From an uncultured Gemmatimonadales bacterium (GTDB lineage Bacteria; Gemmatimonadota; Gemmatimonadetes; Gemmatimonadales; GWC2-71-9): a DNA stretch of 64,000 bases. Made by a program: the position numbers. Below are positions 36,601 to 42,600 of this stretch, in pieces (within the stretch, counting starts at the first letter, position 1; the number at the start of each line of letters is the position of its first letter). Location of the stretch: NCBI GenBank assembly GCA_963798915.1, contig CAWCVB010000010.1, forward strand, positions 86,092 through 150,091, read 5' to 3'.

Positions 36601-39600
36601 TTCGCGCCTGATCCGGACCGCCAGCGATTCTCCCTCGACGACCGGCATGACATAGTACAACAGGCCATCCGCGTCACCGCTGTCATGCAGTGGCAGGATG
36701 TTGGGATGATTCAGCCGGGCGGCCACCCGGATTTCGCGCAGAAATCGTTCGTGACCCAGCGAGGCGGCCAGATCGGGTGAGAGAGCCTTGATGGCGACTT
36801 CGCGCCCATGACGCTCATCCCACGCCCGATACACGACCGCCATGCCGCCGCGTCCCAGCTCCCCCCTGACCGTATACCGACCGGCCAGGGCGGCGCCGAG
36901 CCGCGCTTCGAGTTCACTCATGCGACTGATCTGCCACGATGGGCCAACCCTCGGATTCGAAGAACGGATGGCATGCGCGGCCCGGCCTCTCCAGATCCTG
37001 CTCCAGCAGAGCAACCCCCAACCTTCCCTTGTACAGCGACAAGTGCCCTGCCGCACTCCGCGCAAACGGCTTGGCATCGCGCTCCAACAGCAGGCGAGCG
37101 CGGTCCAGCCAGCGGGCATCGCCGGTCATCCGGTGAAGCGCGAGCAGGGCATAGCTGCGGCCTGCCAGTCCGCAGCACAAGTCGGGAAACCGGTCCGGTG
37201 CTTCCCATGCGCTCCACCCGCACCGTTCGGCCAGAACCGCATATCGGTCATTCCGAGTCAACTGAAAGGCAATATTCCAGAGATGTACCAGCCCGGCCGG
37301 CCCGTTGCACCACCCCGGAAGATCATGATGACTGCCAGTTCCGGGCACGTGGGGGAACTGGATGCCGCGGCCCCGAGGTTCCGCCAACCGTCCCAGCGTT
37401 GCCAGCGCCCGCGCGATGGCCTGAGAGGGTGCCTGCCGCGCAACCCGACACCAGCGGAGCATCGCGTAGAGCACTCCTCCCCAGCCATGGGCAATGCCGG
37501 CGTTGTCCAACGGGCCGCCCGCTGGAAAGGACACGAATTCCGCCAGCGTCGCACCCAGCCGGCGCATCAGCTCCTCTCCCAGGGCGCGCAGCAGCACGCG
37601 CGATGGAGCAAGCTCGGCCGGAGCCGCCTCCAGCAGCATCACAGCGCCCAACAGCACGCCCGCAATGCCATGGCCCAGTTCAACCCGCGTCTCGGCGGCA
37701 ATATCCAGTGCGCAGAAGCGCTTGATTGCAGCAGCCATCCGTGTGAGCTGGCCAGATGCCTGGGCGAGGTGCGCGTCCACCAGAATCAGGCCAGAACCAG
37801 TAAAATATGGCGTCACGCTGCCGGTGACATCCGCTTCCAGTCCTTGACGGGGACTCAGGAATGCGCCGGAGCCACGGCTTGCCTGCTTTGCGGTTTCGCA
37901 CCAGCCGGCCGCCGCCGAGAGCAGTTCCGGCTCGTTGCGCAGGACAGCCAACCGGTACAACCCGAACGCCGTACCGGCCATGCCATGCATCAGCGAGCAG
38001 CGCGGCGCCCCGATCATGCGAGCCCACTCCGGTGGAGAGCGCCGAGCCAATGTGCGCAGCCACGCGTCTGCCCGACTTTGGGACTGGATACGCACCGGCG
38101 TGCCAACCGGCGGAACTGTGCAACTCGCCAACGCATCGGCGAAGTGGCGCACCGAGCGAAATCGATCCGAGGCCTTCTGTGCCAGGGCCCGGCCGAGCAC
38201 CGCCTCGAGCCCGGGCCACGGTGCAGCACCGTGGGCGGCGAATGGCAGTGGCCGCGCTCTGGCCAGCGCCTGAAGCATCACCTCGCGGTCCTGGGAGTCT
38301 CCCACATGCGGGGTGCCTGCGGCCATGTGGTACAGGAGCGCTGCAAGCGCAGATTGCTCGCCCACGGCGGAGAGCGGCGGTGGGGAAGAGCCAGCCAGCA
38401 TGGCTTCGGCAAACTGGGGATCGGAGTACGGCAGCACCACGCCGCGATCCACCGGCCGTCGTCCCGGCGTCTTGCTGCACCCGAAATCGAGAATCGTAAT
38501 CCGGCCCTGAGCGCTCACCAGAAGGTTTCCGGCGTGCACATCCCCGTGCAACACGCCCCTCGCGTGGAGGCGCGCATAGGCGCGCGCGATGGAGACCAGC
38601 AGGTGGAACAGCGGCGCGCGACCTGCATGACCGGCGCTTCGAAGCTCGCGCGCCCGTACCAATGGAGAGACTCCGCTGCGCCAGCCCATCACCAGAAATG
38701 GGCGGCCTTCGAGAGTGCCGGCAGACCTGAGTGCGGGAGCGCCACGGCCGCCCAGCAGTTCCAGCACATGCTGTTCCTGACGCAGGGCCCGACGCAGCCG
38801 GCGCTCGGAGCCGAGGCGGGCGATCTTCATTGCCACGACCCGCCCGCGGGAATCCCGTGCCTGATAGAGTTCGGAGTCTTCGAGCACCATCACATGGCGG
38901 ACCACCACAAATCCGGCAATCCTCTCGCCCTTGTCCAGCGATGGCATGATACGGGAGGCATCGGGCGATCCCGCAGGCACCAGGAAGCGAGCCTCATAGC
39001 AATCGCGGAGCAGCGGGAATGAATCGGTCAGCGCCTGTTGCGGATCGCCATTGCTGCTGTGGGCGATGATCGCATCCGCGATGCGGGTAGGCGTCTGGAA
39101 GTGGCGAAGCAGTTCGGCAGCGTCCCGGCTGACCACTCTCGAAGACGCCCGGACCCGCGCCCGACCCAGCGCAAATCCGCCCTCCACGCGAGGCAGGCGC
39201 CGGCGCAGCCCGTCGGGAAGTTCGGCCAGCGGCGTCAGCAGGACGTCCCCGGGCAGGATCAGTGCGTCAGTGATCGCCATGCTGTCCCATCCCGCCGGCG
39301 GTGCCGACCACGACCGGGCTCCAGCTTTCAACATCGACAGCATCCAGCGACACGCGATCCATCGCGAATCGCCACGCCGGGACGATGCAGCCGCGGTCTC
39401 GAGCGGCCTGCGCGAGCGCACTCGCGAGGCGCTGGGTGAGCCAGGCGCGCCAGCTCTCGTCGCCAGCCCAGGGCGCTGCGCGGCCGCGGCCTGCCGGATC
39501 CACACCCCACGATATCAGCGCCGAGTCAAACAACTGTCCGGTGAACGGGACTCCCTGTGCTGCCACGCCGGCCAGATCACGGGAGAGTCTGCGGGCAGCC

Positions 39601-42600
39601 TGCAGCATGCCGCGCCGCGAACTGAAGTAGAGCACCAGTTTATCCGGCCGCAGAATGTTGTAGAGATCCCGTCCCACCTTCATCGAGATTGCACCGGCCA
39701 CACGCGCAGCTGCGTGCAGCGACGGTCGCACCAGCTCAGGCATCGGACTCAGGTACAGCTTCCAGATCCTGCGGCCCGGACGAGGCAGCGGTGTACGGTC
39801 CCATGAGAGCCATGCGCCACCGGCTTCAGGGTCCGACGCCTGAAGCCGTGACCCGTGCGGCATGTCGCGCAGCAGTTCGCGCCCCAGCGCTTCCGCGTCG
39901 GGATACCGCTCCCGCCAGGCCGGCGTGGCCGGCAGCGTGTTGAACGCGTAGAGCAGCCGTGCCGATGCTGACACGTCCGGCAACTCGAACGCGGCGGTCT
40001 GCCGCAACGCGTCCAGCGAAAGCGTGGCCAGCGCCGAGGAGGGAGCGGGTCCGTCAGCGTTGGGGAAAAAGATCCGGTGTGCCGCGCCTCCGCTCACGTA
40101 ACGCCGGCCCGCACGGATTTCGAGGACTCCATCCAGCACCAGCGCCTGAAGTGAGTGAATCGGAATCGAAGGGGGCGCCAGTCGTGGGTGCGCCAACTCG
40201 ACAAAGAGCCGGGCGGTCGAGCGGTTCACCACCCGCGGCGCCCGGAAGTCTCCTGCCTCGGGAGTGAGCAGCCCACCGAACGCAGCGTGTGCCGCCTGGC
40301 GCACCAGCCACGCCGGCATCGGCTCGGGCAAGGCCTCCGGCGCCAACAGGCGGTAACCTGGCGCGGCCCGCATTTTGGCTGAGTGACAGAATGATTTGGA
40401 CACAGCGATGAACGCGGCACCACCCATCCGGCGCACCGGCGTGCGCCGGATGGGTGGCTGAGCGTCGAGTGGTGGTCAGGCCAACGCGGCGTCGAGCTGG
40501 AGCCGCAGGTCCTTGAGACTTTCCGCGGCCAGGCCCTTGGGTTTGGGCTTCGCGGTGGTGTTGGTGCACGCGCCGCACTTGGTGGGCAGCTCGCAGTTAT
40601 CCGCGCCGGCTCCGTTCGCCCAGGCCAGTTCGCCATTTTCCATTGCCTGCACTGGCATCATTATGTCCCTGCTCTCGAACCTGCTCATGGTCAGCCTCCG
40701 ATCGCGTAATACTGCCCGGGCCCGCCGAGATGGCTGGTCCGTTCAAGGTCCGTTCTATTGAGAAAGGTGTGCCCCTTGGATATACCGGGCGACTTGAACG
40801 CCGTCAATGCCACCCTTGCCCGCCGGCCAATCCGGCGGTAAGTCACCTGCCGCCAAGCCAAGGGAGCCTGACGTGGCCGACACCGCCTTCGAGGTCCATA
40901 GCATCGCCTTTGCCTATCCCGGCAATCGCGAGGCAATCCCGCTGCGCGCTCCGGCAACCAATCACCTGGTCAGCGAACACCCCGAATGGATCCGGAACGA
41001 GCGCTCGGCTCCCGTGGCATATGTGCGGGGCGCCCGGCCTCACGTTCAGGTGGTTTTCCGGCGCCAGGCGGGGCCAAGGAGGATCACCTGCGTGGTCGGT
41101 GCCACGGCGCGAGGCGCCACCGCAGGGGTGCAGGCCCGCCGTGTCCGGCTGGAGTTTGACCGAAGCGGCCTGTCACGGCCGGTGCGATTCCAGCTCTCGC
41201 GCACTTTGCCGAAGGTGGTCGGGATCCGACGGATCCGCTGGGCCTGGTTCCGGCTGGTAGAGGGGAAGCGCCTTCCCGCCGGCGGCTCAGCACATGAGAT
41301 CTGCCTTGCGTGGAGGCGGCCACGACCGCCAGCCGACTGGGCCGGCCCCGATTCGTTTCCCCGCAGCCAACCGTGGGTCTATGTGCCACTCATGCAGTGG
41401 ACCTGCGCCTGGGCCGCGGGACGGAATGATCCCAAGGCCATCTGCGACACCATCCTGCGCAAGCTCCCGGCTTCCGGCCTGCGCTACGCTCGGCCAGCAT
41501 GGGACGTTCGGACCATGCTCACGGCGGGGGGCGGGTACTGTGGTGGCTGGTATCGCATGTTCCAGGCAATGGCCGGAGCCCAGGGTGTGGAGGTCAAGCG
41601 CCGTGCCTTCATGGTCCACTGGCAGAATGAGAGCCGGCAGCGGGCCCGATGGTGCGCCATCGTCGTGCAGCACGCAGGGATCAACCGCGACGCGGTGGTG
41701 GAGGCGCCAAGCACCTTCCATGACGTCCGCCAGCGGCCGGTGCGCGGCGCACCGGTGCGCGTCACCACGCGGGCGCGGTACCGCTTCTGGGGTGCGCCAG
41801 GCAAGGTGAACGACGGCCACTGCCTCAATTTCCTTCGGTACAAGGGCGCCTGGCACCTGTATGATGCCTGTTTCCTCTCGGAGTCGGTCCGCCTGCCCGG
41901 CTTCTCCTTGCCTCGCTCCAATTCGACCCGTGCCGTGCCGGTCGGCCGGCTCGGTGCCTTTCGGACGCGATACCTGGATCGGGCCGTGAATTACATGCTG
42001 GGGTCATTCCGGAATGATGGGAAGCTCTATCGCACCATCCACCCCGACCCGGCCACGAAGCAGTTCGGCAAGGCGACGGTCACCAATGGATTGAGTATTC
42101 GGACGACGCTCGTGCCCGACCCGGGACAACTCATCTCCTTCTACTGGATCTGACCATGCCGCTAGCCCATCAGCACCTGCGACGCTGCCTGGCAGGCGGC
42201 CTGATCCAAGGCCGGCGCGCGACCTGGCAGCACGCGCTGGCGTTGTTGCACGCCGTCGCCGACGATCATTCCACCGAGTCCGAGAGCGTCCTGCGCGAGG
42301 TCGCGCTCTACGACGGCGTGCTCCAACTCGATACTACCGCCGGGCTGCCCCACGCCATGTCGCCGGAGGATGCAATGCGTTCCCTGGCGATCCAGGTGCT
42401 CGCGCAGTGGGACCGTAAGCGCCATGGCGACGTGATCCGGGCGGTGGGACGGAACGCGCGCAATGACGTGGTGGCAGCGATTGCGGGGGACAGGCGAAGC
42501 TGGGCTGAAGGCTGAAGGCTGAAGGCTGAAGGCTGAAGGCTGAAGGCTGAAGGCTGAAGGCTGAAGGCTGAAGGCTGAAGGCGGCGCGAAGATACTCTGC

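Follow-up and report, generated by a model that had tools for sequence, protein, structure and literature searches.

A predicted RiPP cassette with a two-protein lanthionine synthetase in an uncultured Gemmatimonadales bacterium

What might be made by a 70-residue peptide, a protein without a named family and a kinase fused to a LanC cyclase, when the three are encoded side by side? The ORFs, as translated, are co-directional on the minus strand at 36914-40688 of the window (the whole 64,000-nt stretch of DNA analysed, from an uncultured bacterium of soil type), where a first-pass annotation had already placed them. The order of the genes, the folds of their products, the conservation of catalytic residues, the linkage across the family and the architecture of the precursor are observed; from these we infer peptide modification and each of its chemical steps, and consider it probable that the locus is a RiPP cassette in which a synthetase of two proteins makes a peptide with thioether bridges of the lanthionine type.

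Table 1. Features of the cassette and adjoining genes (window positions, or residues of the precursor)
Feature	Position	Strand	Detail or basis
Precursor peptide gene	40476..40688	-	70 aa; translated ORF
Shine-Dalgarno-like GGAGG	40695..40699	-	6 nt 5' of precursor ATG; read from sequence
Precursor N-terminal recognition motif FESRDIMMPV	res 4-13	-	translation
Precursor core NCELPTKCGACTNTT		-	Cys32, Cys38, Cys41; Thr36, Thr42, Thr44, Thr45
Precursor C-terminal amphipathic helix LKDLRLQLDAALA	res 58-70	-	Cys-free
Hairpin, precursor stop to lyase gene	40420..40457	-	perfect 17-bp stem, 4-nt loop
Lyase-like gene	39267..40427	-	386 aa; ATG at 40427
Lyase protein N-terminal domain	40059..40427	-	beta-beta-beta-alpha-alpha (AF2 secondary structure)
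Predicted LanY/HopA1-fold phospho-Ser/Thr lyase domain	39267..40058	-	alignment A1, VIA, Foldseek
Kinase-LanC (KC) gene	36914..39280	-	788 aa; ATG at 39280; ends with stop codon
KC N-terminal 113-aa domain	38942..39280	-	3 strands + 3 helices; AF2
Hanks-type Ser/Thr kinase domain	38105..38941	-	res 114-392; Pfam Pkinase + APH
LanC cyclase domain	36914..38083	-	res 400-780; Pfam LANC_like
Fourth gene, membrane receptor-type Ser/Thr kinase with C-terminal TPR region	33964..36921	-	translation, Pfam
448-aa conserved protein, divergent	40807..42153	+	no named family

Gene layout and precursor peptide

The start of the KC gene overlaps the stop of the lyase gene by 14 nt, and the 3' arm of the hairpin that follows the precursor gene covers the lyase ATG (40427-40425). 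The hairpin has an RNA fold energy of -49.3 kcal/mol (z -6.8) that none of 200 shuffles equalled. Of 45 related loci, 19 have a comparable hairpin after the precursor gene, at a cut-off of z<-2 from a rough mononucleotide shuffle. The position of the hairpin together with the overlapping start and stop codons suggests a single transcript, which would supply precursor in excess over the enzymes, with both enzymes and the downstream receptor kinase translationally coupled; the hairpin itself may set the precursor-to-enzyme ratio.

The motif, core and helix that had been quoted for the precursor are identical to our translation, and its conservation at both ends is reproduced across related loci. 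Of 80 related loci, 45 have an adjoining upstream ORF that is found by an HMM of the N-terminal motif; 40 of these 45 ORFs have a helix of the type L..L[KRQ].[QE]L, and the tails are free of Cys. A looser two-part search recovers two-ended ORFs in 66 of the 80 loci, as against 54 of 10173 control segments, and these ORFs, directly upstream of the lyase gene, are Cys/Thr-rich; the other 14 loci fail the two-part search, and the upstream peptide of locus L016 has no Cys. Between its conserved ends the core is highly variable and in relatives is built of repeats, for example CTNxT, CTPSP, CPDDT and DCATQCTNEPT, in which Cys is the most constant feature and stands 1-4 residues from Thr or Ser.

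The high Cys density of some relatives' peptides, which have repeats and up to 32 Cys, could also be that of an unmodified metal-binding or redox peptide, the neighbouring enzymes being there by coincidence or for regulation. This would seem very improbable, however, as at least nine phylum-level groups share the fixed order precursor-lyase-KC, Thr or Ser is always found beside Cys in the repeats and conserved non-Cys ends are unexpected in metallothionein-like peptides.

The lyase and the kinase-LanC protein

That the 386-aa protein matches no family had been claimed before, and repeated scans were again empty (Pfam at E<=0.1, NCBIfam at E<=1). The LxmY/HopA1 lyase fold proposed for it is recovered in a new AF2 model from a 38-sequence alignment (pLDDT 89.2), which by VIA is closest to LxmY (9dk1_B, Z 13.9, 223 aligned) and HopA1 (4rsw, Z 13.2), followed by the lyase domain of CuvL (12.5), ThurKC (10.9), SalKC (10.1) and SpvC (8.2); the best six PDB matches are thus all phospho-Ser/Thr lyases, the next unrelated one has Z 5.9, and Foldseek against 9dk1_B gives E 1.6e-6. 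There is no sequence match between the family and any solved lyase. The fold matches begin only at model residue 105, after an N-terminal domain of ~105 residues in the database form P0005, to which the 386-aa protein adds 18 residues upstream (residues are numbered here as in P0005, 18 lower than in the 386-aa protein). K205, Y207, K232 and R242 are invariant and Y249 near-invariant (alignment A1), and the K-R-Y spacing of 10 and 7 is that of CaoY K219-R229-Y236, whose importance is reported from mutagenesis in PMC9486802; a Tyr occupies the position of the general-acid His106 of SpvC/LanL. The family is large, with 1619 clusters at E<=1e-3, the best 150 of which are all 358-507 aa, i.e. stand-alone. 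The model supports a stand-alone phospho-Ser/Thr lyase of LanY/HopA1 fold.

In KC, Pfam detects LANC_like (7.3e-21), Pkinase and APH. The NCBIfam match to LanL (NF038150) reaches 132.6 bits against a cut-off of 650 and covers only model positions 191-798 of 851, and the alignment of the AF2 model with class IV CuvL starts only at residue 211 of the CuvL chain (211-861); both bear out the earlier statement that KC has no lyase domain. The N-terminal domain found in its place (AF2 model, pLDDT 92) is conserved as much as the rest of the protein and is unrelated to the lyase catalytic domain (E 0.45). The kinase domain aligns with PknB at Z 26 (VIA, model residues 114-389), and its catalytic residues K152, H245, D247, N252 and D265-F-G are all five kept in 70 of 70 family members, as is the LanC catalytic His598, whilst the zinc ligands Cys658, Cys702 and Cys703 (CCG motif) are each kept in 69 of the 70. 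A few KC genes are apparently frameshifted or shortened (L016, L023, L038, L051). At residue level WCNG aligns on WCHG and LCCG on LCHG of LanCL1, so the third zinc ligand is Cys and not His, in agreement with the Cys-Cys-Cys site first proposed.

The N-terminal domains of the lyase and KC are homologous to each other (hhalign probability 91.4%, E 9.1e-7, 62 columns). That of KC aligns with PqqD in the expected register at hhalign E 5.5e-4, against 0.013-0.26 for eight control slices, and of 48 members 6 have a sub-threshold Pfam match to ThcOx and 1 to PqqD. It is probably an RRE-type (PqqD-like), peptide-binding winged helix, and both enzymes probably start with homologous RRE-like peptide-recognition domains. 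Known RREs (PqqD-like wHTH; PqqD, lasso B1) share the order of three strands and three helices and a weak profile similarity, but the KC domain falls below every curated threshold, and here there are two paralogous copies, on both enzyme subunits, with peptide binding putative.

Under such a scheme the precursor would be gripped at both ends, by its strand-like N-terminal motif and its amphipathic helix, the likely holders being the homologous N-terminal domains; the lyase and KC may form a complex in which each domain pairs with one end. The kinase domain would phosphorylate Thr (or Ser) in the core, and the separate lyase would take the phosphate off by beta-elimination to leave dehydrobutyrine or dehydroalanine, with Lys232 as base and Lys205, Arg242 and Tyr249 assisting. 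The LanC domain, with its Cys-Cys-Cys zinc site, would then add the three core Cys to form up to three (methyl)lanthionine rings.

The last step could be otherwise, with LanC adding a small-molecule thiol to the dehydrated peptide, or with a dehydro-only or other cross-linked product. Among solved structures the LanC domain is indeed nearest to eukaryotic LanCL2 and LanCL1 (VIA Z 39.9 and 38.9), which PDB titles call glutathione S-transferases bound to Dhb peptide, and class Va is reported to cyclise without LanC (PMC12328550). We nevertheless regard this as unlikely, since the domain matches CuvL, a class IV synthetase, as well (Z 38.7) and Cys, close to Thr or Ser, is the most constant feature of the core.

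Related loci and neighbouring genes

A set of 80 GTDB loci with a lyase-family gene was collected independently of the first-pass annotation, which had counted a kinase in 80 of 80 and LanC in 79 of 80. The strict order holds in our set, with somewhat lower counts: kinase homology is found downstream of the lyase in 78 loci and LanC in 76, and the four without LanC (L030, L041, L048 and L076, the last two also without kinase) stop 332-1083 nt past the lyase match, all misses being contig ends. Among the 73 loci in which this junction was measured, 71 have a KC start that overlaps the lyase stop or is at most 24 nt away. The lyase family occurs mainly in Gemmatimonadota and Acidobacteriota; Bacillus, previously named among the hosts, is not seen in the 80 independent loci. 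The split-enzyme arrangement is widespread in little-studied phyla.

The fourth gene (Pfam Pkinase 3.5e-47 and TPR repeats) has its likely ATG at 36921, overlapping the KC stop by 8 nt, and is probably accessory or regulatory, in a putative role. Homologous receptor-type kinases occur in the 6-kb flanks of 25 of the 80 loci; of the 28 ORFs concerned, 23 share the strand of the cassette, and the median distance is 237 nt. A Ser/Thr kinase is the only recurrent neighbour across the 80 loci. The overlap of the fourth gene with KC, the hairpin and the homologous RRE-like domains are three points absent from the first-pass annotation.

The divergent 448-aa protein has an invariant GGYCG...DGH..NFL...LYD (a Cys-His-Asp signature) and is 49% identical to the gene that L030 has in that place; 6 of the 80 loci, all from Gemmatimonadota, have it in this position. 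Pfam Transglut_core matches only at E 0.13, and its atlas neighbours are unnamed clusters (0.96-0.98) and Transglut_core clusters (0.78-0.79); it is possibly a transglutaminase-fold cysteine enzyme and a candidate peptidase, and its membership of the cassette is uncertain. Neither an exporter nor a protease of any named family can be recognised in the cassette and its 10-kb surroundings.

That lack, the operonic receptor kinase and some upstream ORFs of ~290 aa with long coiled-coil tails would be consistent with enzymes that act on cellular proteins, making and then quenching dehydroamino acids at phosphosites in the manner of OspF and LanCL, perhaps as part of signalling together with the neighbouring receptor kinase; the small ORF would then be a regulator or scaffold. 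We think this quite improbable, as a variable core between conserved ends is a hallmark of RiPP substrates and both enzymes have N-terminal domains of peptide-recognition type; furthermore these phyla abound in Ser/Thr kinases, so that adjacency in 25 of 80 loci is by our estimate only a mild enrichment.

Comparison with known lanthipeptide systems

A split lanthionine synthetase (Y + K-C) is the most likely reading of the locus, and our literature search found no description of a split lyase and kinase-LanC arrangement. Class IV LanL enzymes (VenL, SgbL, CuvL; NF038150; 8car/8cav) likewise fuse a Ser/Thr kinase to a zinc-type LanC, provide the best NCBIfam and the best synthetase structure match of KC, and have the same expected chemistry of phosphorylation, elimination and cyclisation. 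KC differs in having an RRE-like domain instead of the fused OspF-type lyase domain, a score far under the family cut-off and Cys rather than His as third zinc ligand, whilst the lyase is a separate LanY/HopA1-fold protein and both ends of the precursor are conserved.

Class V LanK/LanY pairs (CaoKY, LxmKY 9dk1) also have a stand-alone HopA1-fold lyase with a kinase encoded alongside; LxmY is the best structural match, CaoY has the same Lys/Arg/Tyr spacing, class V LanY too is without the general-acid His106, and the cyclase of class Vb is likewise a LanC (PMC12328550). The lyase family described here, however, has no match to Pfam HopA1 (PF17914), has an extra N-terminal domain outside the region matched by LxmY and has Lys, not Arg, at the R187 position of CaoY. 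The kinase here is joined to LanC, and its best structural match is PknB, a Hanks kinase, rather than a free LanK of APH type; the hosts are mainly Gemmatimonadota and Acidobacteriota, whereas class V is so far reported from actinobacteria according to PMC12328550.

The three-Cys zinc triad and CCG motif are shared with class II CCG-type LanM (ProcM-like, 'Type IIa D-CCC') and with the 'L-CCC' group, for which 8 peptides are tabulated in PMC11251773; the triad is described there as more reactive and tied to many or varied substrates, which fits the hypervariable, repeated cores seen here. CCG-type LanM has another dehydratase, the LanM lipid-kinase-like domain, and 'L-CCC' enzymes, as that paper defines them, have a fused VenL-type lyase, no split lyase being described in the passages of PMC11251773 on that group. 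Class VI LanKC-b of streptococci is another kinase-centred synthetase that departs from the three-domain layout of class III/IV, but its single protein combines a truncated lyase with a truncated cyclase, and its rings are of 4 residues (PMC10676316), whereas the present cassette has a full-length cyclase and a lyase that is a complete, separate protein.

The locus had been described as a hybrid of class IV and class V; whilst the parts are as claimed, the proper comparison is class Vb (SmoK/SmoY/SmoC), where kinase, lyase and LanC cyclase are three separate proteins (PMC12328550). As class Vb already has them separate, the cassette would represent another fusion state of the same three activities and not new chemistry, and its Y + K-C arrangement is most likely to be placed between class IV, with Y-K-C fused, and class Vb, with K, Y and C apart.

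Organisation and genomic setting of the cassette

Four closely spaced genes on the minus strand (33964-40688) make up the locus, and the genes around the cassette are of a housekeeping nature (MetH, MTHFR, YggT, a desaturase and thioredoxin), with no exporter and no protease of a named family among them. The hairpin 3' of the precursor gene folds at -49.3 kcal/mol (z -6.8 in RNA folding against shuffles), and in 19 of 45 related loci the gene for the peptide is likewise followed by such a hairpin, as judged with a rough shuffle (z<-2). A promoter scan of 33500-41300 returned no sigma-70-like site, and the single terminator-like site in this interval, fewer than in shuffles, falls inside the kinase-LanC gene. 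The genome itself, which is 84.8% complete, contains one cassette and one precursor.

Coordinates of the cassette genes and adjoining features, counted along the window
Feature	Position	Strand	Remarks
Divergent 448-aa protein	40807-42153	+	No Pfam or NCBIfam family
Precursor gene, 70 aa	40476-40688	-	GGAGG 5' of start
Perfect 17-bp hairpin	40420-40457	-	Between precursor stop and 386-aa gene; covers lyase start codon
Lyase protein gene, 386 aa	39267-40427	-	
Kinase-LanC gene, 788 aa	36914-39280	-	ATG overlaps lyase stop by 14 nt
Membrane Ser/Thr kinase gene, TPR-rich C-terminal region	33964-36921	-	Likely ATG at 36921 overlaps stop of 788-aa gene by 8 nt

The divergent 448-aa protein has 49% identity to an equally placed gene in one related locus (L030), and such a gene stands at this place in 6 of the 80 loci, each of them from Gemmatimonadota. 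Its invariant GGYCG, DGH..NFL and LYD motifs resemble a Cys-His-Asp triad, the database hints being weak and to the transglutaminase-like superfamily only (Pfam E 0.13, Atlas 0.78-0.79). The protein may be the peptidase that is otherwise missing from the window's clade. Receptor-type Ser/Thr kinases are found near the cassette in 25 of the 80 loci, mostly on the same strand and against a high background in these phyla, with TPR in the window and a PD40 beta-propeller in another locus (L025).

Linkage was assessed in the best 80 of 143 confirmed relatives in GTDB genomes, fetched with a 13-sequence alignment. On the same strand and downstream of the lyase gene, tblastn detected a kinase in 78 loci, a LanC domain in 76 and the N-terminal domain in 74; the record ends 332-1083 nt past the lyase match in the four loci that lack LanC. 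The kinase-LanC start overlaps the lyase stop in 45 loci and follows it within 24 nt in another 26, which accounts for 71 of the 73 measured, the remaining two having an insertion of 0.8-1.2 kb between the genes. In an Armatimonadota locus (L031) a 368-aa predicted membrane protein of no known family (5385-6491) lies between the lyase and kinase-LanC genes, and in an Okeania locus (L077) the insertion there is of approximately 780 nt and has no long ORF.

By record title the hosts of the best 80 loci are Gemmatimonadota, many orders of Acidobacteriota, Chloroflexota, Actinomycetota, Armatimonadota, Eremiobacterota, Alpha-, Beta- and Gammaproteobacteria, one cyanobacterium and two Nitrososphaerales MAGs; in the last two (L068, L069) the cassette is on contigs that binning assigns to ammonia-oxidising archaea. 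The one isolate among the hosts of the 80 loci is Amaricoccus macauensis DSM 101730, in which the kinase-LanC gene appears frameshifted. The lyase family has a patchy distribution within the phylum of the window, being present in 9 of 301 sampled genomes, this one included. A search for longer proteins found no fused lyase-kinase-LanC form, which is weak evidence. In one sampled genome (G191) the lyase lies within an open frame of 1138 aa, which was considered as such a fusion and rejected, as on translation the upstream read-through looked non-coding.

The lyase protein, the kinase-LanC protein and their N-terminal domains

The 386-aa protein has no match in Pfam (E<=0.1), the HopA1 family PF17914 included, and none in NCBIfam (E<=1), and comparison of the single sequence or of the lyase-family profile with PDB sequences returned no solved lyase and two chance-level matches only. 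A word-indexed search identified 46 relatives, for which every source name given is "hypothetical protein", and 38 of these were aligned after 8 shorter or lower-coverage ones had been left out. At E<=1e-3 a full HMMER pass with the 38-sequence profile matched 1,619 clusters (50% identity), of which 1,156 have E<=1e-30, and the best 150 clusters are all 358-507 aa in length, that is to say free-standing.

Comparison of the AlphaFold model (pLDDT 89.2, pTM 0.89) with 48,161 PDB representatives gave six top matches that are all phospho-Ser/Thr lyases: LxmY of the lexapeptide dehydratase (Z 13.9, 223 aligned), HopA1 (Z 13.2), the lyase domains of CuvL (Z 12.5, 23% identity), ThurKC (Z 10.9) and SalKC (Z 10.1), and SpvC (Z 8.2). 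The next, unrelated match scored 5.9, and Foldseek agrees with the lyase matches. In the 38-sequence alignment K205, Y207, K232 and R242 are invariant and Y249 is nearly so (numbered along P0005, the 368-aa database form of the protein; 18 is added for the 386-aa form). The spacing of K232, R242 and Y249 equals that of K219, R229 and Y236 in CaoY, and the family has a basic residue at the position of CaoY R187 and SpvC K104; mutagenesis described in PMC9486802 showed that the CaoY and SpvC counterparts of these residues matter for elimination. The structural matches set in at model residue 105, and the ~105 residues that precede it therefore make up a domain of their own.

The 788-aa protein matches LANC_like over profile positions 5-347 of 350, together with Pkinase (36.4 bits) and APH (42.2 bits) in Pfam. 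The LanL model NF038150 is matched at 132.6 bits, below its cut-off of 650, and only over positions 191-798 of 851; the class III LanKC model NF038151 is matched at 73.8 bits, below its cut-off of 575. In an AlphaFold model built from a 50-sequence alignment (pLDDT 92) residues 119-778 align with residues 211-861 of CuvL (Z 38.7), and in structural searches the kinase matches PknB (Z 26) and the LanC domain LanCL1/2 (Z 39-40), with 355-365 residues aligned to LanCL/GCR2.

Conservation was assessed in 70 members, the window's protein and 69 complete genes of 730-830 aa, drawn from 77 found once 8 open-ended or odd-length genes had been left out. Kinase residues K152, H245, D247, N252 and D265 and LanC His598 are kept in all 70, and Cys658, Cys702 and Cys703 each in 69. 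In a residue alignment to LanCL1 the CCG of the window's protein falls on CHG, and the zinc triad is therefore predicted to be Cys-Cys-Cys, with Cys in place of His as third ligand. Such a predicted site is notable but not unprecedented, as Cys-Cys-Cys triads are known in ProcM-type LanM enzymes and in a small "L-CCC" group (PMC11251773). A predicted complex of the 368-aa lyase form with residues 1-440 of the kinase-LanC protein scored 0.02, in a run without controls that counts neither way.

In the 70-member set residues 1-113 of the kinase-LanC protein show as much conservation as its catalytic domains. That they are the remnant of a lyase domain was ruled out by comparison with the catalytic part of the lyase (hhalign E 0.45); their homologue is the N-terminal part of the lyase protein (hhalign probability 91.4%, E 9.1e-7, 62 columns), and both domains are modelled as three strands followed by helices. 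Against an alignment of 29 PqqD-domain sequences from genomes of the phylum, the kinase-LanC N-terminal domain gave E 5.5e-4 (probability 30%) in the expected register, compared with E 0.013-0.26 for eight control slices of the same proteins, and its Pfam matches all stay below threshold, with ThcOx (an RRE family) matched by 6 and PqqD by 1 of 48 members. The ESM Atlas gave no usable match to this domain, its profile had two chance-level matches only among PDB sequences, and the lyase N-terminal domain was not significant against the PqqD alignment directly (E 0.28). With moderate confidence we infer that both are probably RRE-type (RiPP recognition element) peptide-binding domains, the assignment of the one on the lyase following from its homology to the other.

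A precursor family with two conserved ends

An HMM of the N-terminal motif (consensus F-x-S-R-D-L-M-V-x-V-L-P) picked out, in 45 of the 80 loci, an ORF whose end lies 18-292 nt upstream of the lyase; in 40 of these 45 the core is followed by a helix of the L..L[KRQ].[QE]L type, and none of the 40 tails contains Cys. A looser test, which asked for at least two Cys and at least two Ser/Thr within the 60 residues that precede a Cys-free tail opening with the helix motif, was passed in 66 of 80 loci compared with 54 of 10,173 other segments, some of the 54 being extra precursors. The cores are hypervariable and often repeated, examples being CTNxT in the window's clade, five or six copies of CTPSP, four of CPDDT and three of DCATQCTNEPT. 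The largest precursors reach ~290 aa, there are up to 32 Cys, and in many relatives the tail is extended into a coiled coil of 50-80 aa.

Precursors of 180-290 aa, which far exceed the usual size of lanthipeptide precursors, lie directly upstream of the lyase in L008, L009, L011, L017, L047, L054-L056 and other loci. They are built of 10-30 tandem Cys/Thr units, for example CTDCTTQAFSICGTTPG or CYCASHPVLTP, and end in a conserved 50-80-aa coiled coil (L..LK.QL...E.E....M.PQT.EE.D.L...L..A..EL). The N-terminal motif occurs twice in the upstream ORF of the two Nitrososphaerales loci, MSFKIRDLMITLIP ... KAFRIRDLMITIL. Extra two-ended, Cys/Thr-rich ORFs occur up to ~4 kb upstream of the cassette in L071 (1098-1718), L076 (1700-1939) and L078 (5196-5600), a sign that one pair of enzymes may serve several substrates.

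A small number of relatives seem degenerate, either through a kinase-LanC gene that appears frameshifted (L023, L038, L051) or through a Cys-free peptide. The latter is found in a Thermoanaerobaculia locus (L016), where the upstream peptide (2810-3064) has the N-terminal motif and the C-terminal helix around a core that is a (PN)n repeat, and where the kinase-LanC protein is 671 aa long with a shortened LanC region; this cassette may be degenerate or repurposed.

Wider reading and comparison with known lanthipeptide classes

A far-reaching reading, which we consider rather unlikely, is that the cassette stands for a lanthionine synthetase of a seventh architectural class, whose substrate assembles the enzyme and whose products are large, cell-associated and multi-ringed, possibly with a role in signalling. 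The N-terminal strand motif and the C-terminal helix would each dock on one of the two paralogous RRE domains, carried by the lyase and by the kinase-cyclase, and the core would be clamped between three active sites. A ProcM-like three-Cys zinc site would let one pair of enzymes process hypervariable cores of many repeats, up to ~290 aa. Large "lanthi-proteins" with many rings would result and would retain their coiled-coil tail; they would stay cell-associated, as no exporter or dedicated protease is encoded, and may serve not as antibiotics but in signalling via the receptor Ser/Thr kinases encoded with them.

With clustering at 50% identity the lyase family runs to at least 1,619 clusters, mostly from uncultured soil phyla, with a range that takes in Gemmatimonadota, Acidobacteriota, Chloroflexota, Eremiobacterota and even Nitrososphaerales MAGs. 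To our knowledge the RiPP chemistry of these soil groups has barely been explored. The cassette raises the questions of how a core flanked by two recognition sequences is recognised and of whether the three-Cys zinc site is coupled to multi-repeat substrates. Since neither Pfam nor NCBIfam has a model for the lyase, pipelines that assign every protein with Pkinase and LanC to class III/IV would mislabel such loci and miss both the lyase and the two-ended precursor; a mining study of 2020 classed any protein with Pkinase and LanC as III/IV (PMC7268733). A full-text literature search found no description of a free lyase paired with a kinase-LanC fusion; such loci may be present in the subscription literature and in supplementary material, for instance the lists of that study.

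Lanthipeptide classes are defined by enzyme architecture, six being recognised as of 2026 (PMC13509491), and the arrangement described here fits none of them. In class IV (LanL) the lyase, kinase and zinc-LanC domains form one chain, whereas the kinase-LanC protein here is without the N-terminal OspF/SpvC-type lyase domain. The central Ser/Thr kinase with its catalytic Lys, Asp, Asn and DFG is shared with class IV. Of the zinc-LanC residues the catalytic His and two Cys are present, and the predicted third ligand is Cys and not His. The LanC-like domain of class III LanKC is without zinc ligands, positions that are filled here by Cys658, Cys702 and Cys703. In class V both the APH-type kinase and the HopA1-like lyase are free proteins, to which Vb adds a free LanC (PMC12328550); the predicted fold and the pattern of catalytic residues in the cassette lyase match those of LanY, with no match to PF17914 at E<=0.1, and whilst LanK is a stand-alone APH-type kinase (PF01636) in a heterodimer with LanY, the cassette kinase is fused to LanC. 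Class VI (LanKC-b) has truncated lyase and truncated cyclase domains (PMC10676316), both in one protein, whereas the cyclase match here is near full-length.

The precursor tail, with hydrophobic residues spaced by two or three, resembles the helical motifs for recognition in class III/IV leaders such as ILELQ and LEQLEALD (PMC8341899), although it stands C-terminal to the core and there it is a leader motif. The cassette combines a free lyase of predicted LanY fold and a kinase-LanC fusion, each with a predicted paralogous recognition domain, with a predicted three-Cys zinc site and a two-ended substrate; the chemistry expected of it is the known lanthionine chemistry.
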